From a virus (Duplodnaviria > Heunggongvirae > Uroviricota > Caudoviricetes), in IMG/VR virus record IMGVR_UViG_2897358383_000002: DNA of 64,000 nt; one strand, written 5' to 3'. Position 1 is the first letter of the stretch. The number at the start of each line of letters is the position of its first letter. Under the pieces are notes generated by a model. The model saw nothing but the letters and a program-made list of their open reading frames with translations, was not told where the DNA came from and did no database searches. Made by a program: the position numbers and the translations under genes. Shown here one piece after another: positions 374 through 64,000 of this stretch.

Positions 374-1932
374 ATGAAAATGACAAGTATTCAACAACGT
401 GCAGAGCTTCATCGCCAGATCTGGCAAATTGCTAACGATGTCAGGGGTTCAGTCGATGGATGGGATTTTAAGCAGTACGTTTTGGGCGCGCTTTTTTACC
501 GTTTTATCAGCGAAAATTTTTCCAGCTATATTGAAGCCGGTGATGACAGTATCTGTTATGCGAAACTGGATGACAGCGTAATTACTGATGACATTAAAGA
601 CGATGCCATCAAAACCAAAGGTTACTTCATCTACCCCAGTCAGCTTTTCTGCAACGTAGCGGCGAAAGCAAATACCAATGACAGACTGAATGCGGATTTA
701 AACAGCATCTTCGTTGCTATCGAAAGTTCTGCTTACGGTTATCCTTCAGAAGCTGACATCAAAGGTTTGTTTGCTGATTTCGATACAACCAGTAACCGCC
801 TGGGGAATACCGTTAAGGATAAAAATGCCCGCCTGGCTGCGGTTCTGAAAGGGGTTGAAGGGTTAAAACTTGGTGACTTCCACGAACATCAGATTGACCT
901 GTTCGGTGACGCCTATGAGTTCCTGATTTCTAACTATGCGGCGAATGCCGGTAAGTCAGGCGGCGAGTTCTTTACACCGCAGCACGTCTCTAAGCTGATT
1001 GCACAACTGGCTATGCACGGGCAGACCCACGTTAACAAAATCTACGACCCGGCAGCAGGCTCCGGTTCGCTGTTGTTGCAGGCTAAAAAACAGTTTGATG
1101 ACCATATCATCGAAGAAGGTTTTTTTGGTCAGGAAATCAACCATACGACCTATAACCTGGCGCGTATGAACATGTTTTTGCACAACATCAACTACGACAA
1201 GTTTGATATCAAGCTGGGTAATACACTGACTGAGCCGCACTTCAGAGATGAAAAACCGTTTGATGCCATCGTTTCTAACCCGCCGTATTCGGTGAAATGG
1301 ATTGGCAGCGATGACCCGACGCTGATTAACGATGAACGTTTTGCCCCGGCTGGCGTTCTGGCCCCCAAATCCAAAGCTGACTTTGCGTTTGTATTACATG
1401 CGCTGAACTATCTTTCGGCCAAAGGTCGCGCTGCGATTGTCTGCTTCCCAGGCATTTTTTACCGTGGCGGCGCGGAGCAGAAAATCCGTCAGTATCTGGT
1501 CGATAATAACTATGTCGAAACCGTGATTTCACTGGCTCCGAACCTGTTCTTTGGCACCACCATTGCCGTAAACATTCTGGTTCTGTCTAAACATAAAACG
1601 GATACCAAAGTTCAGTTTATTGACGCCAGCGAACTGTTCAAAAAAGAGACTAACAACAACATCCTGACCGATGCCCATATCGAAAAAATTATGCAGGTAT
1701 TTGCCAGCAAGGAAGATGTTGCTCATCTGGCGAAATCTGTTGCGTTTGAGACTGTTGTCGCGAATGACTATAACCTGTCGGTGAGCAGCTATGTGGAAGC
1801 GAAAGATACTCGCGAAATTATCGATATCGCTGAGCTGAATGCTGAGCTGAAAACCACGGTCAGCAAAATCGACCAGTTGCGCAAAGATATTGATGCGATT
1901 GTGGCTGAAATTGAAGGCTGCGAGGTGCAGAA

Positions 1933-1936
<4 letters not shown>
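374..1936 (+). CDS. hsdM: Type I restriction-modification N6-adenine DNA methyltransferase subunit (HsdM), Type IC/EcoR124-like
   Basis: 520-aa ORF with the NPPY catalytic motif (VSNPPYS) and AdoMet-binding region ([10 protein letters not shown]). Stop overlaps the hsdS start (ATGA). Confidence 0.95.
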
Positions 1937-3189
<1,253 letters not shown>

Positions 3190-3310
3190 TTGACCATTGC
3201 TACAGACCGGCTCACCTTAACATCCGGTCAGTATATAGACTATTTTTTACGCGCCGGAAGTCACTCTTAACGCCCTTCCGGCTCTTGCCAGGCGGCACAA
3301 AGGATGCGCT

Positions 3311-6300
3311 ATGACTCATCAAACACACACCATTGCTGAATCCAATAACTTTATCGTCCTTGATAAGTACATCAAAGCTGAGCAAACAAGCGACAGCTAC
3401 CAGAGCGAATCGGACCTGGAACGTGAACTGATTCAGGACCTGCGGAATCAGGGTTATGAATTTATTTCCGTAAAATCACAGTCGGCAATGCTGTCTAATG
3501 TTCGGGAACAGCTTCAGAGCCTCAATGGTGTGATGTTTAATGACAGCGAGTGGCGGCGCTTCACGGAGCAGTATCTGGACAACCCCAGCGATGGTATTCT
3601 GGATAAAACCCGTAAAATCCATATCGACTATATCTGCGACTTTATTTTTGACGACGGGCGACTTGAGAACATCTATTTGATAGATAAAAAGAATCTCATG
3701 CGCAATAAGGTGCAGATTATCCAGCAGTTTGAACAGACGGGTTCTCATGCTAACCGTTATGACGTCACGATCCTGGTTAATGGTTTACCGCTGGTGCAAA
3801 TCGAACTAAAAAAACGCGGGGTGGCGATTCGTGAGGCTTTCAACCAGATACATCGTTACAGTAAAGAGAGTTTTAACAGCGAAAATTCCCTGTTTAAGTA
3901 TCTGCAACTGTTTGTCATTTCTAACGGCACCGATACCCGTTATTTTGCCAACACAACAAAGCGCGATAAAAACAGTTTTGACTTCACCATGAATTGGGCG
4001 AAATCAGACAACACGCTGATTAAAGACCTCAAAGACTTTACCGCTACCTTTTTCCAGAAACATACTCTGCTGAATGTTCTGGTGAACTACAGCGTTTTTG
4101 ACAGTAGTCAGACGCTACTGGTGATGCGACCGTACCAGATTGCCGCCACCGAACGAATCTTATGGAAAATCAACAGCTCCTATAAAGCGAAAAACTGGTC
4201 TAACCCCGAAAGCGGTGGCTTTATCTGGCACACTACCGGTTCTGGTAAAACACTGACCAGCTTTAAAGCCGCGCGTCTGGCAACAGAACTGGACTTTATT
4301 GATAAAGTCTTCTTCGTGGTCGACAGGAAAGACCTCGATTACCAGACCATGAAGGAATATCAGCGTTTTTCGCCAGACAGCGTCAACGGCTCGGAAAATA
4401 CCGCAGGCCTTAAACGAAATCTGGATAAGGACGATAACAAAATTATCGTCACTACTATTCAGAAACTCAATAACCTGATGAAAGCAGAAAGCGACCTGTC
4501 TGTATATAATCAGCAAGTGGTGTTTATATTTGATGAATGCCACCGCAGCCAGTTTGGAGAAGCGCAGAAAAACCTGAAGAAGAAATTCAAACGCTATTAT
4601 CAGTTTGGTTTTACCGGCACACCTATTTTCCCGGAAAACGCCTTAGGCTCAGAAACGACCGCCAGCGTATTTGGTCGTGAATTGCATTCGTATGTAATTA
4701 CCGATGCGATTCGTGATGAAAAAGTGCTCAAATTCAAGGTGGACTACAACGATGTGCGGCCACAGTTTAAGTCTTTAGAGACAGAAACTGACGAGAAAAA
4801 ACTAAGTGCGGCTGAAAATCAGCAGGCGTTTCTTCATCCCATGCGTATACAGGAAATTACGCAATATATTCTGAATAACTTCCGCCAGAAGACCCACCGT
4901 ACTTTCCCAGGTTCCAAAGGCTTTAATGCTATGTTGGCAGTGAGCAGCGTGGATGCTGCAAAAGCCTATTACGCGGCGTTTAAACGGTTACAAGAGGAAG
5001 CCGCTAATAAATCTGCAACTTATAAACCGCTGCGTGTTGCGACAATCTTCTCCTTTGCCGCTAATGAAGAACAAAATGCCATTGGTGAAATTTCCGATGA
5101 AACTTTTGATACCAGCGCAATGGACAGCAGTGCTAAAGAGTTTCTTGACGCTGCAATTCGTGAGTATAACAGCTATTTTAAAACTAACTTCAGCACCGAC
5201 GGTAACGGTTTTCAGAACTACTATCGCGATTTAGCCCAACGGGTTAAAAATCAGGATATCGATCTGTTAATTGTCGTGGGGATGTTTTTAACTGGCTTCG
5301 ATGCTCCAACATTGAACACGCTATTCGTCGATAAAAACCTGCGTTTTCACGGCTTGATGCAGGCATTTTCCCGCACCAACCGTATTTATGATGCAACTAA
5401 AACCTTCGGTAATATCGTCACTTTCCGGGATCTGGAACGCTCAACTATTGATGCCATAACGCTGTTTGGTGACAAAAACACCAAAAATGTGGTTTTAGAA
5501 AAGAGTTATGCAGAGTATATGGAAGGCTTTACTGATGCTGCCACTGGTGAAGCTAAGCGCGGCTTTATGGCAGTAGTTTCAGAACTGGAACAACGGTTCC
5601 CTGACCCTGCCAGTATTGAAAGTGAAAAAGAGAAGAAAGACTTCGTTAAACTGTTTGGTGAATACCTGCGTGCCGAGAACATCCTGCAAAACTATGATGA
5701 ATTTGCCACGCTGAAAGCCCTGCAACAAATCGATCTTAGCGATCCTGTTGCGGTAGAAAAATTCAAAGAAGAACATTATGTGGATGATGAAAAGTTCGCT
5801 GAATTGCAAACGATTCGTCTCCCTGCTGAACGCAAGATTCAGGATTATCGTTCTGCCTATAACGATATTCGTGACTGGCAGCGCCGCGAGAAAGAAGCTG
5901 ATAAAAAAGAAAAATCAACCACTGACTGGGATGACGTGGTTTTTGAGGTCGATTTGCTGAAGTCTCAGGAAATAAACCTGGATTATATCCTTGGACTGAT
6001 TTTCGAACACAACAGACAAAATAAAGGCAAGGGCGAAATGATCGAAGAGGTCAAACGCTTAATTCGTTCAAGCCTGGGGAACCGGGCGAAAGAGGGCCTG
6101 GTGGTCGATTTTATTCAGCAAACGAACCTGGATGATTTACCAGACAAAGCCAGTATCATTGAGGCATTCTTTACGTTTGCTCAACGCGAACAGCAACGTG
6201 AAGCAGAAGCATTGATAAAAGAAGAAAATCTCAATGAAGATGCAGCAAAACGCTATATTCGCACGTCTTTAAAACGCGAATACGCCACCGAAAATGGCAC

Positions 6301-6427
6301 AGAATTAAACGAAACATTACCAAAACTTAGTCCGTTGAATCCGCAATATAAAACGAAAAAACAGGCAGTTTTCCAGAAAATCGTCTCGTTTATTGAGAAG
6401 TTTAAAGGCGTAGGCGGAAAAATATAG
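3311..6427 (+). CDS. hsdR: Type I restriction enzyme endonuclease/translocase subunit (HsdR)
   Basis: 1038-aa ORF with SF2 helicase motifs (Walker A TTGSGKT, DEAH-box FDECHRS) and an N-terminal nuclease region. Length class matches EcoR124-type HsdR. Confidence 0.95.
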
Positions 6428-46732: not shown

Positions 46733-49700
46733 ATGGAAAGAAAAAACGCCAATATTGACGATGTTATAAGGACAGTTGAAACCGCCAGCGCGAAAGAGCT
46801 GGAAGAGCTTGCAGGTATTCGGGAAGCTGTTGAAGATTTGAAAGGGGAACGAGTTGCAACTGTTGATCCTGTCTCTCGCAGTGTGTCGGCATTAAATCGC
46901 ACAATCGAAAATTCCCGGCCAGACTTTGTGGCCAATGCGCCATCAGTAGACCCTATTGTTGACGCAATGAAACGGCTTAATTTAGGGGACGTTTCTCGTA
47001 TACGGGAGGACAAAGTCACTAACCGTGAACAGCAGGTTGCACCAACAGCGCACAATCCCCCAAATAGACGAAGAGAGGCAATAACAGAGGATGTTAAAGC
47101 ACAGCGGTTAGAAACGGTCAAACTCGCTCGTGATTTGAGAGGGGGACGCGTTGCAACGGTTGACCCAGTATCTCGCAGTGTGTCGGCATTAAATCGAACA
47201 ATCGAAAATTCCCGGCCAGACTTTGTGGCCAATGCGCCATCAGTAGACCCTATTGTTGACGCAATGAAACGGCTTAATTTAGGGGACGTTTCTCGTGTAG
47301 TTCAGGAGGGCATTGCTCAAGAGGAACAGCAGGCCAAATCAACTACACCAAAGGGTAAAAAAAGACGCAGGAAGGCTATATCAGAGGATATAAAGGCACA
47401 ACGGACCGAAGCAGCCGAACACGCTCGCGAAATGTTCGATCAAAAAGGCGGTGCGCAAAAAAGCCAAAACCAACGCGATGCGCGTGGTCGTTTTATTGGA
47501 AAGTCAGGGAGTAAGGCCGCAGCGGAAGATGTCCGTGCTGAACGTGCTGAAAAGGCCAGGCGCAAAGAGGATGATGAGCGTCTAAATGCTGAATCAGGTT
47601 TATTAAAAAAACTGTCAAAAGTAGCTGAAGGCATAGGTAACCCTTCAGAGACTCGTGCCGTCGATGCGTTAGGTTATGCCGTTGCTGGTCCATTGTGGGC
47701 AGCAGGGAAGGAGCTTGGCGGGATATCAAAAGAAGTTGGTGGATCGCTTAATGGTGCCAGAAAGTCTATTGCCGATGTGATTCGTGGCAATGACGATAAC
47801 AGCCGTAGAAAAGGTTTTTTTAGGCGTAAATCGCAAAATAGTGCCGATGTCGTTCAGGTTAACACCCAAAAACGGACGGTTCAGGAACTTCAGGAGCAGA
47901 CCAGCGAAATTAAAGAGGGCAATGACAAGATTCTCAGCGCCCTTGATCAGATAGCCAAAAACACCGGGAAAAAGAAGGGCGGCTTGCTGTCCAAACTATT
48001 TAGCCTGTTAGGGAAGGGGGCCGGTGGTATTGCTTCCCTTATTTTTGGCCGTGGGGTACTAAAGAAAGTTGGCTCGATGGCACTAGGCGCTTTAGGTATA
48101 AAAAAAGTTGCAAGCTTATTGGGCTTTGGTGGGAAAAAAGCTGCTGCCAAAGAAGCTGGCGAATTGGCTACTCGCGGTGCCGGAAAACTTGCAACTAAGG
48201 GATTGGGGAAACTAGGTGTTAAGGCTCTTGCAAAGGGGGCTTTACGCGCAATTCCGCTAGTCGGCACGGTGGCTGGAGGTATCTATGATGCGGTAACCGG
48301 TTGGAATGATACAGAAGCACAACGTCGGACCTTTGGGCTTAAGGATGGGGAAGATCCATCTTTTCAGCAAAAAGCGGCTTATACACTGGCTAACGTTCTC
48401 GATATGGGAGGACTGGTATCTGGTATTAGCAGTGCCATTGGCGGCGTTCTCAAATCACTTGGATTTGAGGATATCGGCAATATGTTGCAATCATTTTCGA
48501 CGGAAAGTATTGCCCAGGCCATTGATAGTGGGATTACCAATTTAGAAACATATATTTCTAACCTTGGTGATACTATATCCACGACATTTAGTGATTATAC
48601 TGCAAAGATTGGTGATGCTATTTCAGCATGGTTCAGTGACACAACAAAGAACCTGAACGAAAAATTAGACGCCATCAAAAACTTCTTTACTGTCGATAAC
48701 CTGAAACAGGTTTTCAGTGATGCAATTGATAGTGCAATTGATTTCATTAAGAACCCAGGGAAATACATTAAAGAAGCTGGCAGTAATCTATGGAGTGCCG
48801 CAAAAGAGCTTTCAGGTGAGGTTGCAGATGCCGCTGTTCAGAGCACCCCTGTGGCCTGGGTTGCATCAAAGCTAGTCAACAAAGCGGATGCGAAAGAGGT
48901 TACACCTGAATTAAAAACACCAGCTAAAGAAAGTCAGGAGGACAATGCTCCTAAGACTGAATATACCCCTAAAAAGGCTAATATTGTCACTCGTGTTGTA
49001 AATGCATCCCTAGATACGGCGAAAGATAGCAATAAAACAGTTAAAGAAACTGCTAATCAGATTATCAATGCAAATGCCGTAGAAACGGGCAATAGCGCGT
49101 TGCAGAAAATTGATAAAGCTATTGGTCAAAATAGCTCGTCATCATCGTCGCTTAATACCACTGGCACCAGGAATGACATTCAGAAAGCTGCGGATACCTA
49201 CAACAATGGCAACTTGGATGTAAAAGTCGGAAGTCTTGGCGCTGAAGGTAAGGCAAATCTCGATAAGTTGGCTCCGTATTTTGCCGAACTAGAGAATAAA
49301 TACGGTCTTCCAGAAGGCACTCTTTACGCGATTGCTGCAACTGAATCTGGTGGTAATCCGTATGCAAAATCCCAAACCGGTGCTCTGGGGATGTTTCAGT
49401 TCACGGGGATTGCTCGTGAAGAGACTGGCTTAGCTGAAGGTGAATCGTTTGATCCTGTGAAATCGGCAGAAGCTGCGGCTCTTCTCATGAGCAAATATCT
49501 GAAGCAAGCCAATGGAGACTTAAACGAGGCCATCACTGCATATAATGCTGGGTTTGGCACTATCAATAAGTGGAAAAAAGGCACAGGTGACTTATCGAAA
49601 GAAAACCGTGAGTACGCGATCAAGGTCAATACTCATCGTGCTCGCTATTTAGGTGGTGAAATCTATACACCTGGAGCAGGAGCACAGGGTGGGGCGCAAT

Positions 49701-50784: not shown

Positions 50785-52214
50785 GTAAAACAACACCGAC
50801 TAAAGACAGTATTCGTGCAGAGTTTGAAGAGCTTGTCGAGAAAGATTCATTCTGGTCGAAGTTTGTCGGCTCTCAATTTGTCTCGATGCTGACATTGTTT
50901 ATTACCCAGATTGTCTACAGGTGCTTTCAGTATGCCGATGCGGCGCTGGCTGAAGGCTTTATATCGACCGCGACGCGGCGTTCCTCTATCCTGGCAGCGG
51001 CAGAAACGAATAGTTACGTTGGTACCAAGCCAACACCGTCATCGGGGATGATTGAGATCACCGCCACAAGTGAAGATGCCCCAGCGGTAATCCCCAAAAA
51101 TATGCCTTTAATATCTGACGACCAGTACCCTTACATGACTATGGATGTATGCAGGTTGGTTGACGGCACCGGTACGGTAGAAGTGGCACAGTTGGAAATC
51201 CAGGAGGTGACATATACCGTTACGGCAGCCAAAGAATTTCTGGAAGTCGTGTTATCAAAGGCTCTCACTGCTGTCTGCTATAAGCTGGAAGTATTCGTGA
51301 CGACCGATGGTAAGACCACGCAGTGGTCTTCCAGCACTATGTTCCGGTTAGCCGGTAGTAAAAGCCAGGTCTACGTTGAGTTTTATAAGCCATCCGAGCA
51401 GTTGGGGGTTCGATTCGGTGATGGGCTAATTGGGCAAATACCGCCAGAAGGCTCGACCATTACACTTAAGGTATGGTGCACCAACGGAGATATAACCCTG
51501 GTTGCTGGCCAAAACCTGACGCCTGTCGATTCTGCGGCTAATTTAGCTAATTTGATTTCAGTTAAGACAACGACACCCATAACCGCAGGTACCGATGCCG
51601 AAACAACGGAGATCACACGTAATCGTGCACAATATTACCTTGCCTATGATGATCAGGTCGTATGGGGCGGGGACTATACGTATTTTTTGGTGCGTAACAT
51701 CCCGGGACTGTCCTGGGTAAAGGCATGGGGCGAAGGCCAGCAAGAGAAATTAGATGGTGCTTATAATGTTCGGAATATCAATAAGATATTTATTTCAGGA
51801 TGGCATCCAAACAAAAGCCAGTCAGAGCTTGAAGAAGTGATCCTGGCTGCCTTTAAGAAGGTGCCGAATGAGTTGAACAAGAAATTCTCGTATAAAGAGG
51901 TCAGAAAACTCCCCTTTAAGATCACTATCACTGGGCGGATATCGGCAAGCCTGACCATTGAGAACGTGACTGATGAGCTGAAGTCGGCACTGGAAACAAA
52001 ATTTGGGCGTGACTCAACTTTCTTTGATCCGAACCGTGTCGGCAAGTACATCCTAATCAAGAAAAAAGACGTTTGGGCATTTATCGAAACGCTGGGTTAT
52101 TTCCGCGACTTTTATCTGGAATTTGTCGAGTGGAATGAGTCCAACGGCTTTTACGATTTCGTTTATCTGGATACAGAAAACTCCACCTTTAATATTTCGT
52201 ATGAGGAGGAGTGA
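50781..52214 (+). CDS. Hypothetical structural protein, possible baseplate component (477 aa)
   Basis: Overlapping start and stop with neighbours in the tail operon. Confidence 0.55.
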   Translation: MSKTTPTKDSIRAEFEELVEKDSFWSKFVGSQFVSMLTLFITQIVYRCFQYADAALAEGFISTATRRSSILAAAETNSYVGTKPTPSSGMIEITATSEDAPAVIPKNMPLISDDQYPYMTMDVCRLVDGTGTVEVAQLEIQEVTYTVTAAKEFLEVVLSKALTAVCYKLEVFVTTDGKTTQWSSSTMFRLAGSKSQVYVEFYKPSEQLGVRFGDGLIGQIPPEGSTITLKVWCTNGDITLVAGQNLTPVDSAANLANLISVKTTTPITAGTDAETTEITRNRAQYYLAYDDQVVWGGDYTYFLVRNIPGLSWVKAWGEGQQEKLDGAYNVRNINKIFISGWHPNKSQSELEEVILAAFKKVPNELNKKFSYKEVRKLPFKITITGRISASLTIENVTDELKSALETKFGRDSTFFDPNRVGKYILIKKKDVWAFIETLGYFRDFYLEFVEWNESNGFYDFVYLDTENSTFNISYEEE

Positions 52215-53050
52215 TGCAGCGTTCCTGGTTTAATAACCGGCTTACATCAGCTAAGCAAAAGTCATTACTTTATAAATCATTGGCTGATTTGGTTCAGTCA
52301 ATGATGGACACCTTTGTTGACCCATGGTTGGAGCGAATTACCAACCGGAAGTCTATTTTCTCCATGAGCAAGGAGGATCTGGAGACTAGGACAAATGAAC
52401 TTGGCCAGTTTTTTACTATCAGAACGTCGAATTCATCTTCCGTTCCGATGTTGTTACAACAGCGGTTTGATGAGATCCATTTTAAGGGTACTGAACGCCC
52501 TATAAACCAGACAATTTATCGCGAATTTAACGGTATATCGGTTTTATGGGATCCAATATATGCTCCGGTGGACTTTGAACGTCATCCCTATGGCACGGTC
52601 CTGATTCCAGAAAGCACACTGGAAACCACCGGCGGCACATTCGGCGAGATGTTTCTGACTTCCAGAGGAATGATCAGTATTCCCATAAACGACCTGGCCC
52701 GGACAATGGGTATTACTGGAACGATAGATCAGTCCGCAATTACAGAAGAAATTCTCAGAAAGTTTAATCAGTTCGTAAAGCCTCTACTGCCACTGCATAT
52801 AGTGTTTGATGGGCTTACGCTCTATTTGTCGGTTGTTGTAAATGAACAGGCCGACATGATCACTTTGAATGAGATTTCTGATACCGAAAAAGCATTCTGC
52901 TGGTTTGAAACTTCGGATACAACTTCGCTTACTGAAGTTACGTCGATTAACGCCCCGATCACTGCAACGCCGGGCGGCACTATTGTGAAAGCAACGCCTA
53001 CGTTTGATCGCACCCGCGCAGATGATTTGCTGTTGGATAGCGATGCGTGA
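52211..53050 (+). CDS. Hypothetical structural protein (279 aa)
   Basis: GAGGAGG SD. Overlaps the previous stop. Confidence 0.55.
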   Translation: MMQRSWFNNRLTSAKQKSLLYKSLADLVQSMMDTFVDPWLERITNRKSIFSMSKEDLETRTNELGQFFTIRTSNSSSVPMLLQQRFDEIHFKGTERPINQTIYREFNGISVLWDPIYAPVDFERHPYGTVLIPESTLETTGGTFGEMFLTSRGMISIPINDLARTMGITGTIDQSAITEEILRKFNQFVKPLLPLHIVFDGLTLYLSVVVNEQADMITLNEISDTEKAFCWFETSDTTSLTEVTSINAPITATPGGTIVKATPTFDRTRADDLLLDSDA

Positions 53051-53128
53051 CAATCACCCCGTCCGCAGGGCGGGGTGACAAGTTACTTATCTTACAATGA
53101 GGCTTCACAACATTGATTAGGGAAAATC

Positions 53129-53563
53129 ATGTCTGACGTCTCAACAAACCTCTATAAGAGTCAGTTGTTGGACTATTACTATCAGCGGCGCGCTGAATCG
53201 TCCATTAACAAAGGCTCTCGATTTTTAATCAGCAAGGCCGTTTTCGGTACCAGTTCACTGGTTACTAAGAAAGGAGATGGCACTTATGAGATTGGAGAAC
53301 TGCCAAAGGCTTTCGATCTGGCAGAACTGACCAGTCAATTTTGCACCATCAACCTCGTCCCAACCTACTCAGGCGGGATAATTACTGTCCGAATGGACCT
53401 TGATCAAAGTCAGTTGCAGGAAGGGAAAAACTACCCATTCAACACTCTGGTTGTTCTGGATAACGAGAATAAGCCAATCGCCATTATTTGTGTCCAGGAA
53501 GACTCGCTGTATGTGGGCAAAACATATACCGCAGTTATGGCCATAAACTCGACTACAGCATAA
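53129..53563 (+). CDS. Tail-fibre-associated protein (R-like), 144 aa
   Basis: Immediately precedes the tail fibre gene. An identical copy lies inverted at 61901-62335. Confidence 0.55.
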   Translation: MSDVSTNLYKSQLLDYYYQRRAESSINKGSRFLISKAVFGTSSLVTKKGDGTYEIGELPKAFDLAELTSQFCTINLVPTYSGGIITVRMDLDQSQLQEGKNYPFNTLVVLDNENKPIAIICVQEDSLYVGKTYTAVMAINSTTA

Positions 53564-53574
53564 GGATATGCTTG

Positions 53575-56499
53575 ATGAATGACGTTACAGTTGTTACATC
53601 GGTTACTTACCCATCACCCGAGTCGTTGGCTCTGGTGGCTGATGTGCAATACCACGAACCATATCTGTCAGCCGCTCTAAACCGAAAATTCAGGGGAATT
53701 GTTGACCCGGGATTTTATGCTGGTTTCTTGCCTAAGCCTGGCGGTGGGATGAACCTGTTAATCACCTCAGTGGATGGAGATAAAACCGCTGGCGCGGCGT
53801 CAGTGGATATTGGTGAATTCTACCAGGTAACTATTCAGCATCGTAAGGATATCTCTCTTGCACTTAACGCAGGCAAGAAATATGCAATTGTGCTGAAGGG
53901 AAGATACCTTCTTGGAGAAGATACCTATCAGGTGAATACCGCGTCACATATTCATGCAGCTGAATTTGTTGCCAGAACCTATACCGATTCATATCAGTTA
54001 GGTGATGGGGAACTGCTGGTTTGTACGGTGAATATCCCTGCTGGCGTATCTACCATTACTCAAGAGATGATTGATACATCCGAGCGTATCAACCGCACGA
54101 TCGGCATTGATATTTCAGACTCTGTAACCAGTACCAGAAGTGATGTTGCTGCGAGTTCGCTGGCAGTTAAAAAAGCCTACGATCTGGCGAAAAGCAAGTA
54201 TACGGCGCAGGATGCAAGCACAACGCAAAAGGGATTAGTTCAGCTCAGTAGTGCCACTAACAGTACGTCCGAAGTGCTGGCCGCCACACCGAAAGCTGTC
54301 AAGGCTGCATATGACCTGGCTAACGGGAAGTATACAGCCCAGGATGCAACCACGACACAAAAAGGGATAGTTCAGCTCAGTAGCGACACCAACAGCACTT
54401 CTGAAACATTAGCTGCAACGCCAAAAGCGGTTAAAGCTGCATACGATCTAGCAGCCGGAAAGGCACCATCCAGTCATACACATCCCTGGAATCAGATCAC
54501 TGGTGTGCCAACAGCTTCATTGACAGCGAAAGGCATCACTCAGCTCAGTAGTGCCACTAACAGCACGTCTGAAGTGCTGGCCGCCACACCGAAAGCTGTC
54601 AAGGCTGCATATGACCTGGCTAACGGGAAGTATACAGCCCAGGATGCAACCACGACACAAAAAGGGATAGTTCAGCTCAGTAGCGACACCAACAGCACTT
54701 CTGAAACATTAGCTGCAACGCCAAAAGCGGTTAAAGCTGCATACGATCTAGCAGCCGGAAAGGCACCATCCAGTCATACACATCCCTGGAATCAGATCAC
54801 TGGTGTGCCAACAGCTTCATTGACAGCGAAAGGCATCACTCAGCTCAGTAGTGCCACTAACAGCACGTCTGAAGTGCTGGCCGCCACACCGAAAGCTGTC
54901 AAGGCTGCATATGACCTGGCTAACGGGAAGTATACAGCCCAGGATGCAACCACGACACAAAAAGGGATAGTTCAGCTCAGTAGCGACACCAACAGCACTT
55001 CTGAAACATTAGCTGCAACGCCAAAAGCGGTTAAAGCTGCATACGATCTAGCAGCCGAAAAAGCACCATCCAGTCATACACATCCCTGGAATCAGATTAC
55101 TGGTGTGCCAACAGCTTCATTGACAGCGAAAGGCATCACTCAGCTCAGTAGTGCCACTAACAGCACGTCTGAAGTGCTGGCCGCCACACCGAAAGCTGTC
55201 AAGGCTGCATATGACCTGGCTAACGGGAAGTATACAGCCCAGGATGCAACCACGACACAAAAAGGGATAGTTCAGCTCAGTAGCGACACCAACAGCACTT
55301 CTGAAACATTAGCTGCAACGCCAAAAGCGGTTAAAGCTGCATACGATCTAGCAGCCGGAAAGGCACCATCCAGTCATACACATCCCTGGAATCAGATCAC
55401 TGGTGTGCCAACAGCTTCATTGACAGCGAAAGGCATCACTCAGCTCAGTAGTGCCACTAACAGCACGTCTGAAGTGCTGGCCGCCACACCGAAAGCTGTC
55501 AAGGCTGCATATGACCTGGCTAACGGGAAGTATACAGCCCAGGATGCAACCACGACACAAAAAGGGATAGTTCAGCTCAGTAGCGACACCAACAGCACTT
55601 CTGAAACATTAGCTGCAACGCCAAAAGCAGTTAAAGCTGCATACGATCTAGCAGCCGGAAAGGCACCATCCAGTCATACACATCCCTGGAATCAGATCAC
55701 TGGTGTGCCAACAGCTTCATTGACAGCGAAAGGCATCACTCAGCTCAGTAGTGCCACTAACAGCACGTCTGAAGTGCTGGCCGCTACACCGAAAGCTGTC
55801 AAGGCTGCATATGATTTGGCTAATGGAAAGCAAGCGGCAGACGCTACGCTCACTGCTCTAGCGGCACTAGCTACCGCAGCAGATAAACTCCCTTATTTCA
55901 CAGGGGTTGATCGTGCCGCGTTAACTGCACTGACAAGTGTTGGACGTGCAATTCTTAGTAAGCCCAGTATTCAGAGCGTTCTTAATTACCTTGGTTTAGG
56001 GGAAGGCTCGGCGCTGCCCGTTGGTGTACCTGTTCCATGGCCCTCAGCCACACCACCAACGGGGTGGCTGAAATGTAACGGAGCAGCATTTTCTTCTGAA
56101 AAGTACCCAAATCTGGCAAAGGTTTACCCAACGTTAAAATTACCTGATTTACGCGGTGAGTTTATCCGTGGTTGGGATGATTCGAGAGGGATTGATACAG
56201 GGCGTTCATTGCTAAGTGGTCAGACTGCAACATTTATTCGTACAGCTTTGCAGGATTATTACGGTGTCGATCTGACTACTAATGTCAAAGTAGGTATCGC
56301 TTATGCTACTGCTGATTCTGTTATAACTGTTGGAAACCCTGCTAATCCTAAAGCAGGAGATAATAGCGATTATGTTCCAGCATCATCAGATAACTCCATA
56401 ACAGGCACTCAAAGGACGGCAGAGGATAATTTTACCGGGGCATGGATATCAATGCGCCCCCGCAACGTTGCTTTTAATTACATCGTAAGGGCAGCATGA
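53575..56499 (+). CDS. Tail fibre protein (S-like) with repetitive shaft and exchangeable C-terminal domain
   Basis: ATG 53575 with AAGGA SD (track ORF starts at 53488 inside the R-like gene). Repeats ATPKAVKAAYDLA. C-terminus GVPVPWPSATPPTGWLKCNGAAFS...LPDLRGEFIRGWDD is the conserved fibre-tip module. Confidence 0.85.
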   Translation: MNDVTVVTSVTYPSPESLALVADVQYHEPYLSAALNRKFRGIVDPGFYAGFLPKPGGGMNLLITSVDGDKTAGAASVDIGEFYQVTIQHRKDISLALNAGKKYAIVLKGRYLLGEDTYQVNTASHIHAAEFVARTYTDSYQLGDGELLVCTVNIPAGVSTITQEMIDTSERINRTIGIDISDSVTSTRSDVAASSLAVKKAYDLAKSKYTAQDASTTQKGLVQLSSATNSTSEVLAATPKAVKAAYDLANGKYTAQDATTTQKGIVQLSSDTNSTSETLAATPKAVKAAYDLAAGKAPSSHTHPWNQITGVPTASLTAKGITQLSSATNSTSEVLAATPKAVKAAYDLANGKYTAQDATTTQKGIVQLSSDTNSTSETLAATPKAVKAAYDLAAGKAPSSHTHPWNQITGVPTASLTAKGITQLSSATNSTSEVLAATPKAVKAAYDLANGKYTAQDATTTQKGIVQLSSDTNSTSETLAATPKAVKAAYDLAAEKAPSSHTHPWNQITGVPTASLTAKGITQLSSATNSTSEVLAATPKAVKAAYDLANGKYTAQDATTTQKGIVQLSSDTNSTSETLAATPKAVKAAYDLAAGKAPSSHTHPWNQITGVPTASLTAKGITQLSSATNSTSEVLAATPKAVKAAYDLANGKYTAQDATTTQKGIVQLSSDTNSTSETLAATPKAVKAAYDLAAGKAPSSHTHPWNQITGVPTASLTAKGITQLSSATNSTSEVLAATPKAVKAAYDLANGKQAADATLTALAALATAADKLPYFTGVDRAALTALTSVGRAILSKPSIQSVLNYLGLGEGSALPVGVPVPWPSATPPTGWLKCNGAAFSSEKYPNLAKVYPTLKLPDLRGEFIRGWDDSRGIDTGRSLLSGQTATFIRTALQDYYGVDLTTNVKVGIAYATADSVITVGNPANPKAGDNSDYVPASSDNSITGTQRTAEDNFTGAWISMRPRNVAFNYIVRAA
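54301..55800 (+). repeat. Five near-perfect 300-bp tandem repeats inside the tail fibre gene
   Basis: Units begin aaggctgcatatgacctggctaacgggaag at 54301, 54601, 54901, 55201 and 55501. Only a few SNPs between copies. Confidence 0.9.
55984..56008 (+). other. Putative recombination crossover site at the fibre constant/variable junction
   Basis: TTAATTACCTTGGTTTAGGGGAAGG. The same TTGGTTTRGGGGAAGG core precedes every cassette. Confidence 0.5.
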
Positions 56500-56520
56500 A
56501 AACGTTGGTTTGGGGGAAGG
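56500..56520 (+). other. Putative crossover site before cassette 2
   Basis: AAACGTTGGTTTGGGGGAAGG immediately after the fibre stop. Confidence 0.5.
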
Positions 56521-56938
56521 CTCTGCACTGCCTGTTGGTGTGCCCGTTCCGTGGCCCTTAGAAACACCACCAACGGGCTGGCTAAAATGTAACGGAGCAG
56601 CATTTTCTTCTGAAATGTATCCCAAACTGGCAAAAGCCTACCCCACCAATAAATTACCGGATTTACGCGGTGAATTTATCCGTGGCTGGGATGATGGGCG
56701 CGGGATTGATGCGGGACGTACCCTGCTTTCAGGGCAGGATGGTACAAGTTTTTCTCATTACGGAGGTAATTTCGACATTGGGTCTGGTCATTCAATCAAT
56801 AACTATGACCAAATTGTTTCTAACCAACCAGGATTTTCCCGTTTTTCATTTGCAGGGCCTTCACGAGGTGATGGGGTTAATTATGTAACCATTCGTCCTC
56901 GTAACATTGCGTTTAATTATATCGTAAGGGCGGCATGA
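56510..56938 (+). other. Promoterless alternative tail-fibre C-terminal cassette 2
   Basis: Encodes GEGSALPVGVPVPWPLETPPTGWLKCNGAAFS...NYIVRAA. The track's M is a TTG inside the crossover site. Confidence 0.6.
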
Positions 56939-56961
56939 AAACGTTGGTTTGGGGGAAGGCT
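56939..56961 (+). other. Putative crossover site before cassette 3
   Basis: AAACGTTGGTTTGGGGGAAGG. Confidence 0.5.
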
Positions 56962-57407
56962 CTGCACTGCCCGTTGGCGTGCCCGTTCCGTGGCCATCAG
57001 CCACACCTCCAACGGGGTGGCTGAAATGCAATGGCGCAGCATTTTCTTCTGAAAAGTACCCAAATCTGGCAAAGGTTTACCCAACGTTAAAATTACCTGA
57101 TTTACGCGGTGAGTTTATCCGTGGTTGGGATGATGGGCGAGGTGTGGATGCGGGAAGGGTCATCTTAAGCATACAGGGGTGGTTAACAGGAAGTCATTAT
57201 CATAATATTCGGTCATGGGACGCGTGGGATAACACGGTATTGGTGCCAAATGACAGAGGGGGGGATAGCCTGTTGTCGACAGATAACGCCGTCCAAGAAG
57301 GAGCGATTAATGGTAAATTTACCAGTCAATACAGAACGGAGTTATCTGGGGGGAATGAAACCCGCCCACGTAACATTGCCTTCAATTATATTGTGAGAGC
57401 AGCATAA
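56949..57407 (+). other. Promoterless alternative tail-fibre C-terminal cassette 3
   Basis: Same conserved N-terminal 60 aa as the fibre tip. Unique middle. Ends NYIVRAA. Confidence 0.6.
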
Positions 57408-58018
57408 TGGATAATGCGATATTAAATAGCGAACTTATAGCCATACAGGCAGGAAACATTATCGTTTATAACTATGATGGTGGTAATCGGGAATATATTT
57501 CTGCATCAACTGAATATCTTGCTGTTGGCGTTGGTATTCCGGCACATTCTTGTTTGGATGCTCCAGGCTCACATAAAGCAGGTTATGCGATTCTCCGTTC
57601 AGAGGATTTAAGTTCATGGGAGTATGTGCCAGATCATCGTGGCGAAACTGTCTATAGCATTGACACAGGGAATCCCGAAGAAATCACGGTGTTGGGTGAC
57701 TATCCGGAAAATACAACCACTATCGCCCCGCTAACACCATACGACAAATGGGATGGAGAGAAATGGGTGGTTGATACTGAGGCTCAACATAGTGCAGCTG
57801 TAGAGGCAGCAGAAACAAAACGTCAGTCATTGATTGATACTGCGATGGATTCCATTAGTCTGATTCAGTTGAAATTACGGGCTGGACGGAAGTTGACGCA
57901 GGCAGAAACCACGCAGCTTAACTCCGTGCTAGATTATATAGACGAGCTGAACGCGATGGATTTAACCACGGCACCAGATCTCAACTGGCCTGAAAAACAA
58001 CTTTCTACAGCCAGTTGA
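57407..58018 (+). CDS. Tail fibre assembly chaperone (Tfa / U-like)
   Basis: 203 aa. C-terminal DLNWPEKQ is typical of Tfa proteins. Confidence 0.7.
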   Translation: MDNAILNSELIAIQAGNIIVYNYDGGNREYISASTEYLAVGVGIPAHSCLDAPGSHKAGYAILRSEDLSSWEYVPDHRGETVYSIDTGNPEEITVLGDYPENTTTIAPLTPYDKWDGEKWVVDTEAQHSAAVEAAETKRQSLIDTAMDSISLIQLKLRAGRKLTQAETTQLNSVLDYIDELNAMDLTTAPDLNWPEKQLSTAS

Positions 58019-58023
58019 TATAA

Positions 58024-58521
58024 TTAATCCGCCCTCACAATATAATTAAATGCAATATTACGAGGGCGGGTTTCTAAGCCAGCAGTACCTAAATTAGCTA
58101 CGGACTGTTTATATGTTTTAAAAGTTCCATAATTAGGGGCTGGCAATCCTGCATCGCTTGTGTTCCCCCATCTGATAACTCCCGTATTACCACTAGTAGC
58201 CCATGCCTCGTCAAAGTAGAAATTAATTGAGCTGTCAGTTGCTACGGTTGATTTTGACGGTAATCCGTGAGCATGATCCTCCGTTGCATATCCTTGCTCG
58301 CTTAAAATAGAGCGACCTGGATCAATCCCGCGCCCGTCATCCCAGCCACGAATGAACTCACCACGTAAATCAGGCAATTTATTTGTCGGGTAAGCCTTTG
58401 CCAGATTTGGGTACTTTTCAGAAGAAAATGCTGCACCATTGCATTTCAGCCACCCCGTTGGAGGTGTGGCTGAAGGCCACGGAACAGGGACACCAACAGG
58501 TAATGCAGAGCCTTCTCCCAA
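58024..58521 (-). other. Alternative tail-fibre C-terminal cassette 4 (reverse orientation)
   Basis: Reverse-strand GEGSALPVGVPVPWPSATPPTGWLKCNGAAFS...unique...NYIVRAD, preceded by the crossover core (58509-58533). Confidence 0.6.
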
Positions 58522-58623
58522 ACCAACGTTTTTATGCCGCCCTTACGATGTAATTAAATGCGATATTTCGTGGACGGGTTACTCCCCATATTACCTCCCT
58601 CGTGAATGAAGTGTCGGTGATGA

Positions 58624-58968
58624 TCAAATCCTCTGTATTGTCATCAGATCCATCCTTGGTGTATGTTTTTTTGAAATGTCCCAGCTCCCATTCATCTTTT
58701 GTGTCGTAACCATCATGCTACAAAATATGTCGATGCTTTCAGCATTCCTGTCTGAATGCCAATAAAGCACGTCCCGCATCCACCCCGCGCCCATCATCCC
58801 AGCCGGAATAAATTCTCCCGTAATCCGGTAATTTATTGGTGGGTAGCTTTGCCAGATTTGGGTACTTTCAGAAGAAAATGCTGCACCATTGCATTTCAGC
58901 CACCCCGTTGGAGGTGTGCTGAGGGCCACGGAACGGGACGCCAACAGGCATGCAGAGCCTTCCCCCAA
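58624..58968 (-). pseudogene. Alternative tail-fibre cassette 5, disrupted by several 1-bp indels
   Basis: Recognisable conserved start (TPPTGWLKCNGAAFSSE), then frame loss. Crossover-like core at 58956-58980. Confidence 0.5.
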
Positions 58969-58995
58969 ACCAACGTTTTTTATGCTGCCCTTACG

Positions 58996-61889
58996 ATGTA
59001 ATTAAAAGCAACGTTGCGGGGGCGCATTGATATCCATGCCCCGGTAAAAATTATCCTCTGCCGTCCTTTGAGTGCCTGTTATGGAGTTCTGATGATGGAA
59101 CATAATCGCTATTATCTCCTGCTTTAGGATTAGCAGGGTTTCCAACAGTTATAACAGAATCAGCAGTAGCATAAGCGATACCTACTTTGACATTAGTAGT
59201 CAGATCGACACCGTAATAATCCTGCAAAGCTGTACGAATAAATGTTGCAGTCTGACCACTTAGCAATGAACGCCCTGTATCAATCCCTCTCGAATCATCC
59301 CAACCACGGATAAACTCACCGCGTAAATCAGGTAATTTTAACGTTGGGTAAACCTTTGCCAGATTTGGGTACTTTTCAGAAGAAAATGCTGCGCCGTTGC
59401 ATTTCAGCCACCCCGTTGGAGGTGTGGCTGAATGGGCCTGGAACAGGGTACGCCAAACGGGCCAGTGCAGAGCCTTCCCAAACCAAGGTAATTAAGAACG
59501 CTCTGAATACTGGGCTTACTAAGAATTGCACGTCCAACACTTGTCAGTGCAGTTAACGCACCCCTGTGAAATAAGGGAGTTTATCTGCTGCGGTAGCTAG
59601 TGCCGCTAGAGCAGTGAGCGTAGCGTCTGCCGCTTGCTTTCCATTAGCCAAATCATATGCCAGCCTTGACAGCTTTCGGTGTAGCGGCCAGCACTTCAGA
59701 CGTGCTGTTAGTGGCACTACTGAGCTGAGTGATGCCTTTCGCTGTCAATGAAGCTGTTGGCACACCAGTGATCTGATTCCAGGGATGTGTATGACTGGAT
59801 GGTGCCTTTCCGGCTGCTAGATCGTATGCAGCTTTAACTGCTTTTGGCGTTGCAGCTAATGTTTCAGAAGTGCTGTTGGTGTCGCTACTGAGCTGAACTA
59901 TCCCTTTTTGTGTCGTGGTTGCATCCTGGGCTGTATACTTCCCGTTAGCCAGGTCATATGCAGCCTTGACAGCTTTCGGTGTGGCGGCCAGCACTTCAGA
60001 CGTGCTGTTAGTGGCACTACTGAGCTGAGTGATGCCTTTCGCTGTCAATGAAGCTGTTGGCACACCAGTGATCTGATTCCAGGGATGTGTATGACTGGAT
60101 GGTGCCTTTCCGGCTGCTAGATCGTATGCAGCTTTAACCGCTTTTGGCGTTGCAGCTAATGTTTCAGAAGTGCTGTTGGTGTCGCTACTGAGCTGAACTA
60201 TCCCTTTTTGTGTCGTGGTTGCATCCTGGGCTGTATACTTCCCGTTAGCCAGGTCATATGCAGCCTTGACAGCTTTCGGTGTGGCGGCCAGCACTTCAGA
60301 CGTGCTGTTAGTGGCACTACTGAGCTGAGTGATGCCTTTCGCTGTCAATGAAGCTGTTGGCACACCAGTAATCTGATTCCAGGGATGTGTATGACTGGAT
60401 GGTGCTTTTTCGGCTGCTAGATCGTATGCAGCTTTAACCGCTTTTGGCGTTGCAGCTAATGTTTCAGAAGTGCTGTTGGTGTCGCTACTGAGCTGAACTA
60501 TCCCTTTTTGTGTCGTGGTTGCATCCTGGGCTGTATACTTCCCGTTAGCCAGGTCATATGCAGCCTTGACAGCTTTCGTGTGGCGGCCAGCACTTCAGAC
60601 GTGCTGTTAGTGGCACTACTGAGCTGAGTGATGCCTTTCGCTGTCAATGAAGCTGTTGGCACACCAGTGATCTGATTCCAGGGATGTGTATGACTGATGG
60701 TGCCTTTCCGGCTGCTAGATCGTATGCAGCTTTAACCGCTTTTGGCGTTGCAGCTAATGTTTCAGAAGTGCTGTTGGTGTCGCTACTGAGCTGAACTATC
60801 CCTTTTTGTGTCGTGGTTGCATCCTGGGCTGTATACTTCCCGTTAGCCAGGTCATATGCAGCCTTGACAGCTTTTCGTGTGGCGGCCAGCACTTCAGACG
60901 TGCTGTTAGTGGCACTCTGAGCTGAGTGATGCCTTTCGCTGTCAATGAAGCTGTTGGCACACCAGTGATCTGATTCCAGGGATGTGTATGACTGGATGGT
61001 GCCTTTCCGGCTGCTAGATCGTATGCAGCTTTAACCGCTTTGGCGTTGCAGCTAATGTTTCAGAAGTGCTGTTGGTGTCGCTACTGAGCTGAACTATCCC
61101 TTTTTGTGTCGTGGTTGCATCCTGGGCTGTATACTTCCCGTTAGCCAGGTCATATGCAGCCTTGACAGCTTTCGGTGTGGCGGCCAGCACTTCGGACGTA
61201 CTGTTAGTGGCACTACTGAGCTGAACTAATCCCTTTTGCGTTGTGCTTGCATCCTGCGCCGTATACTTGCTTTTCGCCAGATCGTAGGCTTTTTTAACTG
61301 CCAGCGAACTCGCAGCAACATCACTTCTGGTACTGGTTACAGAGTCTGAAATATCAATGCCGATCGTGCGGTTGATACGCTCGGATGTATCAATCATCTC
61401 TTGAGTAATGGTAGATACGCCAGCAGGGATATTCACCGTACAAACCAGCAGTTCCCCATCACCTAACTGATATGAATCGGTATAGGTTCTGGCAACAAAT
61501 TCAGCTGCATGAATATGTGACGCGGTATTCACCTGATAGGTATCTTCTCCAAGAAGGTATCTTCCCTTCAGCACAATTGCATATTTCTTGCCTGCGTTAA
61601 GTGCAAGAGAGATATCCTTACGATGCTGAATAGTTACCTGGTAGAATTCACCAATATCCACTGACGCCGCGCCAGCGGTTTTATCTCCATCCACTGAGGT
61701 GATTAACAGGTTCATCCCACCGCCAGGCTTAGGCAAGAAACCAGCATAAAATCCCGGGTCAACAATTCCCCTGAATTTTCGGTTTAGAGCGGCTGACAGA
61801 TATGGTTCGTGGTATTGCACATCAGCCACCAGAGCCAACGACTCGGGTGATGGGTAAGTAACCGATGTAACAACTGTAACGTCATTCAT
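58996..61889 (-). pseudogene. Inverted second copy of the tail fibre gene, fragmented by frameshifts
   Basis: Track ORFs 61014-61976, 60644-60892, 59653-60363 and 59051-59266 together reproduce the 53575-56499 fibre protein, with 1-bp indels between fragments. Confidence 0.6.
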
Positions 61890-61900
61890 CAAGCATATCC

Positions 61901-62335
61901 TTATGCTGTAGTCGAGTTTATGGCCATAACTGCGGTATATGTTTTGCCCACATACAGCGAGTCTTCCTGGACACAAATAATGGCGATTGGCTTATTCTCG
62001 TTATCCAGAACAACCAGAGTGTTGAATGGGTAGTTTTTCCCTTCCTGCAACTGACTTTGATCAAGGTCCATTCGGACAGTAATTATCCCGCCTGAGTAGG
62101 TTGGGACGAGGTTGATGGTGCAAAATTGACTGGTCAGTTCTGCCAGATCGAAAGCCTTTGGCAGTTCTCCAATCTCATAAGTGCCATCTCCTTTCTTAGT
62201 AACCAGTGAACTGGTACCGAAAACGGCCTTGCTGATTAAAAATCGAGAGCCTTTGTTAATGGACGATTCAGCGCGCCGCTGATAGTAATAGTCCAACAAC
62301 TGACTCTTATAGAGGTTTGTTGAGACGTCAGACAT
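61901..62335 (-). CDS. R-like tail-fibre-associated protein, inverted identical copy
   Basis: 144-aa product identical to that of 53129-53563. Confidence 0.5.
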   Translation of the reverse strand: MSDVSTNLYKSQLLDYYYQRRAESSINKGSRFLISKAVFGTSSLVTKKGDGTYEIGELPKAFDLAELTSQFCTINLVPTYSGGIITVRMDLDQSQLQEGKNYPFNTLVVLDNENKPIAIICVQEDSLYVGKTYTAVMAINSTTA

Positions 62336-64000
62336 GATTTTCCCTAATCAATGTTGTGAAGCCTCATTGTAAGATAAGTAACTTGTCACCCCGCCCTGCG
62401 GACGGGGTGATTGTCACGCATCGCTATCCAACAGCAAATCATCTGCGCGGTGCGATCAAACGTAGGTTGCTTTCACAATAGTGCCGCCCGGCGTTGCAGT
62501 GATCGGGGCGTTAATCGACGTAACTTCAGTAAGCGAAGTTGTATCCGAAGTTTCAAACCAGCAGAATGCTTTTTCGGTATCAGAAATCTCATTCAAAGTG
62601 ATCATGTCGGCCTGTTCATTTACAACAACCGACAAATAGAGCGTAAGCCCATCAAACACTATATGCAGTGGCAGTAGAGGCTTTACGAACTGATTAAACT
62701 TTCTGAGAATTTCTTCTGTAATTGCGGACTGATCTATCGTTCCAGTAATACCCATTGTCCGGGCCAGGTCGTTTATGGGAATACTGATCATTCCTCTGGA
62801 AGTCAGAAACATCTCGCCGAATGTGCCGCCGGTGGTTTCCAGTGTGCTTTCTGGAATCAGGACCGTGCCATAGGGATGACGTTCAAAGTCCACCGGAGCA
62901 TATATTGGATCCCATAAAACCGATATACCGTTAAATTCGCGATAAATTGTCTGGTTTATAGGGCGTTCAGTACCCTTAAAATGGATCTCATCAAACCGCT
63001 GTTGTAACAACATCGGAACGGAAGATGAATTCGACGTTTGATAGTAAAAAACTGGCCAAGTTCATTTGTCCTAGTCTCCAGATCCTCCTTGCTCATGGAA
63101 AAATAGACTTCCGGTTGGTAATTCGCTCCAACCATGGGTCAACAAAGGTGTCCATCATTGACTGAACCAAATCAGCCAATGAAAGTAATGACTTTTGCTT
63201 AGCTGATGTAAGCCGGTTATTAAACCAGGAACGCTGCATCACTCCTCCTCATACGAAATATTAAAGGTGGAGTTTTCTGTATCCAGATAAACGAAATCGT
63301 AAAAGCCGTTGGACTCATTCCACTCGACAATTCCAGATAAAAGTCGCGGAAATAACCCAGCGTTTTCGATAAATGCCCAAACGTCTTTCTTGATTAGGAT
63401 GTACTTGCCGACACGGTTCGGATCAAAGAAAGTTGAGTCACGCCCAAATTTTGTTTCCAGTGCCGACTTCAGCTCATCAGTCACGTTCTCAATGGTCAGG
63501 CTTGCCGATATCCGCCCAGTGATAGTGATCTTAAAGGGGAGTTTTCTGACCTCTTTATACGAGAATTTCTTGTTCAACTCATTCGGCACCTTCTTAAAGG
63601 CAGCCAGGATCACTTCTTCAAGCTCTGACTGGCTTTTGTTTGGATGCCATCCTGAAATAAATATCTTATTGATATTCCGAACAACATTATAAGCACCATC
63701 TAATTTCTCTTGCTGGCCTTCGCCCCATGCCTTTACCCAGGACAGTCCCGGATGTTACGCACCAAAAAATACGTATAGTCCCCGCCCCATACGACCTGAT
63801 CATCATAGGCAAAGGTAATATTGTGCACGATTACGTGTGATCTCCGTTGTTTCGGCATCGGTACCTGCGGTTATGGGTGTCGTTGTCTTAACTGAAATCA
63901 AATTAGCTAAATTAGCCGCAGAATCGACAGGCGTCAGGTTTTGGCCAGCAACCAGGGTTATATCTCCGTTGGTGCACCATACCTTAAGTGTAATGGTCGA

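Follow-up and report, generated by a model that had tools for sequence, protein, structure and literature searches.

Gene S of a P1-like phage-plasmid raises the question of whether a long, nearly perfect tandem repeat inside a tail fiber gene is a genuine and variable part of the fiber, and whether the number of its units can be trusted in an assembled sequence. The gene lies in IMG/VR virus record IMGVR_UViG_2897358383_000002 (Caudoviricetes), of which we analyzed 64,000 nucleotides (nt), hereafter the window. We conclude that the array within S is very probably a real in-frame amplification of a PF03406 module pair in the constant (Sc) part of a fiber of the p15B/Min-type, P1-like phage-plasmids, and that its copy number varies, presumably by recombination. 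P1-like phage-plasmids often carry resistance genes in Escherichia coli, Salmonella, and Klebsiella, and their fibers determine the cells that these elements can enter.

Anatomy of the array and of its fiber protein

Tandem Repeats Finder (TRF) described the array by a period of 300 nt and 5.3 copies, with 98% matches, 0% indels, and a score of 3105. Five full in-register copies, starting at positions 54240, 54540, 54840, 55140, and 55440, are 98–100% identical, and each translates into 100 amino acids (aa) with two "...LAATPKAVKAAYDLA..." modules. Only 6 columns vary among these copies, five by synonymous third-position changes and one by a G to E replacement in unit 3; the private changes amount to two in unit 1, three in unit 3, and one in unit 5. 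An internal sub-period of 132/168 nt (11 copies) divides each unit into a 132-nt "a" module (44 aa) and a 168-nt "a-prime" module (56 aa), the latter with an extra APSSHTHPWNQITGVP... linker. The sixth copy is partial, covering ~90–110 nt up to 55830, beyond which the sequence diverges. A degenerate lead-in module precedes the first full unit, and the a1 element of P1 aligns to every module of the array at 74–82% identity.

The array is flanked by an N-terminal domain like that of P1 Sc on one side and by the Collar/receptor-binding end of the protein on the other, which places it in the shaft of the tail fiber. The initial annotation had proposed exactly this location, together with five near-identical 300-bp repeats that differ by a few bases and encode 100 aa with two modules each, and every one of these features was recovered. 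The interval that it gave, 54181–55830, ends precisely at the array end, but begins ~15–60 nt earlier than the array detected by the programs, with the degenerate first module included. The first crossover site lies 160 nt downstream of the array end, which puts the array in the constant part of S, and a single shaft length would serve all of the alternative tips.

A Pfam search of the 974-aa S protein identified 12 stretches of PF03406 (Phage_fiber_2, phage tail fiber repeat) with 726.6 bits and an E-value of 8.9e-225, compared with a curated gathering score for membership of 22 bits. The phage tail Collar domain (PF07484) was found at residues 817–864 (1.7e-13), and the C-terminal part of S matches the T4 gp37 tip (2XGF) and a short tail fiber (9CUY) in the PDB. 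At the nucleotide level, the stretch from gene R to nucleotide 690 of S is ~96% identical to P1 and P7 (query 1–864), the P1 match ending at window position 54263, i.e. at the array start. The UniRef entry "Sc protein (SvO protein)" of p15B (Q47431) is 91% identical in the best local alignment, and NZ_CP076303.1 and NZ_LR882054.1 each carry an annotated "tail fiber protein" of the same 974 aa. The N-terminal 214 aa are matched with 100% identity in 100 of the 120 best protein clusters. Judged by these alignments, S is a fiber of the p15B type.

We propose, by homology with Mu gpS, that the N-terminal ~214 aa would dock the trimeric fiber on the baseplate, that the repeat modules would build a trimeric shaft between dock and tip, and that the Collar-domain C-terminus would form the receptor-binding tip, swapped among cassettes by site-specific inversion. 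The shaft has a further regularity, as the motif SHTHPW (His-x-His, HxH) occurs once per 100-aa unit, from residues ~297–301 of S onward and then every 100 aa. HxH motifs in other fibers, e.g. T4 gp37, bind metal on the trimer axis. By analogy, the HxH of the repeat unit may form a predicted metal-binding ring in the trimer, a notion that we put forward only as a lead. A PDB search with one unit matched the single module of Mu gpS, the other matches being weak chance ones, mostly to antibody Fabs, and no solved homologue in that search covers the SHTHPW linker.

Unit number among relatives

In PLSDB, 528–538 records match the region; about one third of them carry this type of array and the rest only the P1-like 5′ part. 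Their match spans deviate from that of the query by −1200, −900, −600, −300, 0, or +300 nt, plus further steps of 132/168 nt. The 120 best protein clusters, all of which start with MNDVT, contain 2–7 HTHPW linkers per protein, spaced by 100 aa in 299 instances, by 56 aa in 24, and by 143/144 aa in 3. Even where the 214-aa N-terminal domain is 100% identical, the unit number is not constant: 2 units are found in 21 of these 100 clusters, 3 in 29, 4 in 41, 5 in 4, and 6 in 5. As assembled in public records, the unit number in relatives thus spans 1 to 7.

Decomposition of the arrays of complete plasmids into units showed that units are more similar within an array than between arrays, with lineage-specific single-nucleotide polymorphisms (SNPs) in every unit of an array. 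The unit allele of the window recurs in NZ_CP048611.1 (6 units) and in NZ_CP009168.1 (2 units). Likewise, 76T/77T/181T is present in each of the 4 units of NZ_CP063505.1 and in the single unit of NZ_CP044439.1, 259T in each of the 3 units of NZ_CP058881.1, and 116G/118T/181T in each of the 5 units of NZ_LR882054.1. One unit allele therefore exists at 1 and 4 copies and another at 2, 5, and 6 copies. This combination of homogeneity within arrays and of one allele at different counts indicates concerted evolution by unequal recombination, gene conversion, or slippage.

Each of the periods (300, 132, and 168 nt) is divisible by three, so that no copy-number event breaks the reading frame, and the copy number indeed varies among close relatives with identical flanks while the frame is always kept, as would be the case at a contingency locus. 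Unequal homologous recombination or replication slippage between the 98–100% identical 300-nt units, or between the 132/168-nt sub-units, would alter the count, each event preserving the frame and adding or removing 100 (or 44/56) residues per chain. The initial annotation had anticipated that such arrays expand and contract, and the steps of 300 or 132/168 nt among relatives, together with the homogenized units, bear this out. A population-wide polymorphism of 1 to 7 units is the expected property of an array of this kind, and our literature searches returned no paper on copy-number variation of the array in P1-like plasmids. Because the shaft is copy-number-variable in otherwise identical genes, the length of the fiber gene is unfit as a stable marker.

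Several points weigh against the view of a real array that varies by recombination. The array is hard to assemble, as had been predicted: of 22 IMG/VR contigs with this fiber type, 8 break off within the repeats and several more stop shortly beyond, in the inversion region; the maximum in any of them is 2 full units. Collapsed assemblies may therefore account for some of the low counts in public records, and the count of five is itself read from assembled sequences. Three isolates, from China, from Germany, and from the source of the window, have the same five-unit array down to its internal SNPs, and identity among unrelated isolates implies that turnover is not extremely fast in that lineage. 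For the protein, shaft length would scale with unit number, but an AlphaFold2 monomer of S residues 200–440 was too poor for use (mean predicted local distance difference test score, pLDDT, of 42; predicted template modeling score, pTM, of 0.26), giving only a weak and unreliable hint of a strand-strand-helix arrangement per module. Likewise, an effect of fiber length on adsorption and host range in P1-like phages is what we would expect of such a shaft, rather than an observation.

A different interpretation is that the array evolves slowly and is not a contingency locus, the copy-number differences being rare, historical, and neutral, with no role in host range. The conservation of the five-unit array and its SNPs across the three isolates agrees with this interpretation. 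So does the presence of a dedicated inversion system that already varies the receptor-binding tip, so that length variation need not be adaptive. Nevertheless, 2 to 6 units are found among proteins whose N-terminal domains are fully identical, and single unit alleles occur at several copy numbers, which indicates that the changes are recent relative to point mutation. Moreover, in another myovirus, the Enterococcus phage EfV12-phi1, variable-number tandem duplications in a tail fiber were selected within days during an experimental arms race under host resistance (PMC6365445). We regard slow, neutral evolution of the array as possible, if on the doubtful side. At the opposite extreme, the array could be a fast-switching length dial that acts in combination with Min inversion, with 1 to 7 units, perhaps stiffened by the HxH motifs, multiplied by up to six tips per lysate and tuned to the depth of the O-antigen or capsule; this is a speculation to which we give little credence.

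The inversion region, the mirror arm, and the count of five

The region downstream of the array contains several alternative fiber tips. A crossover-like pattern, TTGGTTTRGGRGAAGGCTCTGC, which we derived empirically from the cassette junctions, has 5 matches in the window (three on the + strand and two on the − strand) versus 0 expected, and the same sequence opens each cassette and the S tip at 55991. The sites are thus conserved, present in both orientations, and placed at the 5′ ends of alternative 3′ cassettes, as in systems of the Din family; the classical gix/cix core AAACCNNGGTTT has zero matches in the window. Positions 56470–58573 align to NZ_CP076303.1 without gaps at 99.8% identity. 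On this evidence, region 55991–58973 has the layout of a p15B/Min-type multiple inversion system. In relatives, the order is S, cassettes, Tfa, inverted cassettes, and then a "recombinase family protein" and holins. None of the 16 open reading frames (ORFs) scanned between 46733 and 63613 matched a resolvase or serine invertase (min/cin). The invertase gene is probably absent from the window because the mirror arm, owing to misassembly, occupies its place.

This mirror arm is the main anomaly of the window. Positions 58769–64000 are the reverse complement of 51453–56719 at 98.3% identity, with 27 mismatches and 36 gap openings in a self-alignment, and the mirror runs off the window end. It includes a second, inverted array of 5.3 units at 59637–61224 (TRF), which the initial annotation had missed. 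The two arms differ almost solely by indels of 1–10 nt. Aligned to reference plasmids over 9797 nt, the + arm shows 0 differences; over 4349 nt of the − arm, by contrast, there are 2 mismatches and 15 gap openings, by which its S′, 16′, and bplA′ are broken. The gap-free match to NZ_CP076303.1 stops at 58573, at the crossover site of cassette c3. Read on the − strand, the arm has the order Sc-Sv-cX-c3-Tfa′-c2′-c1′, a legitimate inversion isomer of a plasmid like NZ_CP076303.1.

Since the − arm reads as a legitimate isomer, the simplest reading of the mirror is a hairpin misassembly with an unpolished tail, joined across inversion isomers, and we consider this likely. The contig would have proceeded forward through one isomer and would then have been extended by a few reverse-strand reads of another. 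The alternative is that the mirror copy is real, i.e. a head-to-head dimer or a large inverted duplication with two arrays, formed through oppositely oriented sites or cassettes of two plasmid copies. According to the site map, recombination of a site with the inverted site of another copy would give exactly R-Sc-Sv-cassettes-Sv′-Sc′-R′, and the center of the structure (56720–58768) is unique and not a perfect foldback. Such a duplication is nonetheless unlikely, given that the 17 differences of the − arm, compared with none on the + arm, are nearly all gene-breaking indels, as fits a thinly covered chimeric contig end. Furthermore, the recombinase gene that relatives have behind the cassettes is missing here, and the junction falls at a crossover site, precisely where the high-quality match to a normal plasmid ends. 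The mirror layout was also found in 0 of 50,697 phage records, 72,556 plasmid records, and 5,426 E. coli genomes.

Cassette cX adjoins Sv on the − arm only, and the two arms are different inversion isomers. The inversion system would accordingly have been active in the culture that was sequenced.

Whichever reading of the mirror holds, the array at 54240–55830 lies on the high-quality arm. Window 46000–55796 matches NZ_CP021203.1, and 49923–55796 matches NZ_CP076303.1, in both cases with 100.000% identity and zero gaps, and the marker SNPs of units 1, 3, and 5 occur in the same order in the two plasmids. Five units are also present in NZ_LR882054.1 and in NZ_CP033882.1, the match to the latter forming one ungapped-length piece. 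These alignments suggest that the count of five in the window is probably correct; the initial annotation had doubted that it was the true one, a concern answered by independent complete plasmids in which the five units recur unchanged, private SNPs included. That the array length is nevertheless an assembly error, the true unit number being above or below five, is very improbable: the gross anomaly 2.7 kb downstream in the same assembly, the breakage or collapse of such arrays in short-read contigs, and the varying counts in public records would favor it, but the gap-free matches to NZ_CP021203.1 and NZ_CP076303.1 extend to ordered private markers that a collapsed or expanded array would not reproduce, and the mirror arm, from other reads, likewise holds 5.3 units.

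The practical value of the finding lies in warnings for assembly. Short-read assemblies of such plasmids are usually broken or collapsed at the array, and the probable hairpin artefact, if unflagged, would be annotated as duplicated, frameshifted tail genes.

In NZ_CP021203.1, the 183-kb cointegrate p1002-1, an IS26 copy cuts S short at the 3′ boundary of the array (locus 14397–15154, window-equivalent 55796). The genes aac(3)-IIe and blaCTX-M-15 come after IS26, and the P1-like backbone is fused to this resistance region within the fiber gene. We also considered this plasmid as a possible inverted dimer and ruled this out, as it is an IS26 cointegrate.

Known fibers, the replicon, and neighboring genes

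The nearest described relative is the S fiber of p15B (Sc-SvO), in which the N-terminal domain, the a and a-prime modules, the segment after the array, and the Sv tip are nearly identical to those described here. Like the window, p15B contains several Collar cassettes, which lie in both orientations and have conserved crossover sites. Its S protein is shorter (762 aa) and less regular: the modules follow the order (a a′)(a a a′)(a a), and it contains two HTHPW linkers, whereas the 974-aa protein of the window has a regular (a a′) × 5 + a arrangement; in addition, no recombinase gene was found among the ORFs scanned in the window. Sandmeier, Iida, and Arber reportedly described the p15B S gene and Min region in 1992, including amplified "a" elements in the Sc of P1 and p15B. 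The present array is a further, larger, and more regular example of these amplified Sc repeats, which extends prior knowledge and does not overturn it.

P1 itself shares the operon order sit, pmgA, bplA, 16, R, and S with the window, and its record M81956.1 annotates two repeated elements within Sc, "a0" of 36 bp and "a1" of 132 bp. In P1, however, a single a1 is followed by b1/b2 elements and by one invertible segment with two tips (the Cin C-segment), in contrast to the array and multiple cassettes found here. This P1 type, without the array, accounts for ~2/3 of the 528 P1-like plasmids sampled.

More distantly, gpS (gp49) of Mu, known from PDB entries 5YVQ, 8JU3, and 9KI1, has one PF03406 module (Mu residues 106–148) that aligns to the unit, compared with twelve here, and lacks both the tandem 300-nt array and the HTHPW linker. 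The Mu tip is switched by a serine invertase acting on the Gin G-segment. The N-terminus of Mu gpS docks on the baseplate wedge, and its C-terminus, with a chaperone, binds the receptor (PMC11915804).

Phage EfV12-phi1 resembles the present case in the in-frame tandem amplification of a fiber segment and in its variable copy number. The duplications in EfV12-phi1 and, reportedly, in T4 arose de novo under selection and had their phenotypes tested, whereas the variation reported here is known from comparing natural plasmids. In T4, Tetart and co-workers are said to have linked His-box duplications in gp37 to a change of host range in 1996.

The coordinates of all features are collected in Table 1.

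Table 1 Features of the S locus, with window coordinates and the basis of each assignment.
Feature	Position	Strand	Basis or remarks
Gene R (tail fiber protein R)	53129..53563	+	144-aa ORF directly 5′ of S; matches annotated R in P1, P7, and vB_EcoM-673R5
Gene S, p15B-type gpS tail fiber by alignment, 974 aa	53575..56499	+	Starts MNDVTVV; a P1-like N-terminal domain is followed by the repeat shaft and the Collar-domain tip
Degenerate lead-in module (equivalent of P1 "repeated element a0/a1")	54196..54239	+	TRF, 132-nt period from 54196
Tandem array, 5.3 copies of a 300-nt unit, in frame, in constant (Sc) part of S	54240..55830	+	TRF
First crossover-like site, Sc/Sv boundary	55991..56012	+	TTGGTTTRGGRGAAGGCTCTGC; at GLGEGSALP motif common to all cassettes
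Crossover-like site ahead of cassette c1	56505..56526	+	TTGGTTTRGGRGAAGGCTCTGC pattern
Promoterless fiber-tip cassette c1 (Collar)	56510..56938	+	Pfam Collar 6.9e-15; 5′ and 3′ ends conserved; "phage tail protein" in relatives
Crossover-like site ahead of cassette c2	56944..56965	+	TTGGTTTRGGRGAAGGCTCTGC pattern
Alternative fiber-tip cassette c2 (Collar)	56949..57407	+	Pfam; conserved ends
Tail fiber assembly protein (Tfa/U-like chaperone)	57407..58018	+	PF02413 Caudo_TAP 3e-30
Inverted fiber-tip cassette c3 (Collar)	58024..58521	-	Crossover-like site 58505-58526
Mirror arm, low quality	58574..64000	-	cX′, Sv′, Sc′ with second array, R′ (61901-62335), broken 16′ and bplA′
Fourth Collar cassette, cX′, frameshifted	58624-58968	-	Crossover site 58952-58973

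Upstream of S, ORFs and Pfam domains give the same gene order as in P1, namely sit (SLT domain), pmgA, bplA (Baseplate_J), 16, and R, with a tail fiber assembly gene (Caudo_TAP) downstream, and this arrangement is collinear with annotated relatives. Window 1–25000 is 100.0% identical to the P1-like plasmids NZ_CP033882.1 and CP119117.1, and three P1-type tRNA genes are present. The homology of S and R to P1, the P1 gene order, the identity to P1-like plasmids, and the tRNAs together identify the window as part of a P1-like (Punavirus) phage-plasmid.

Three further features of the window were noted. The sit gene, encoding a 1231-aa SLT-domain protein, contains a second, older tandem repeat at 46835–47404 (297 nt × 1.9 copies, 82% identical). 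A 21-bp unit, TTGACTATACGCGATTTATTG, is repeated 3.7 times at 28191–28267 and has an iteron-like appearance. Finally, according to the annotation of identical plasmids, positions 374–6427 encode a type I restriction-modification system (hsdM/hsdS/hsdR); classical P1 carries the type III EcoP1I restriction-modification system instead.

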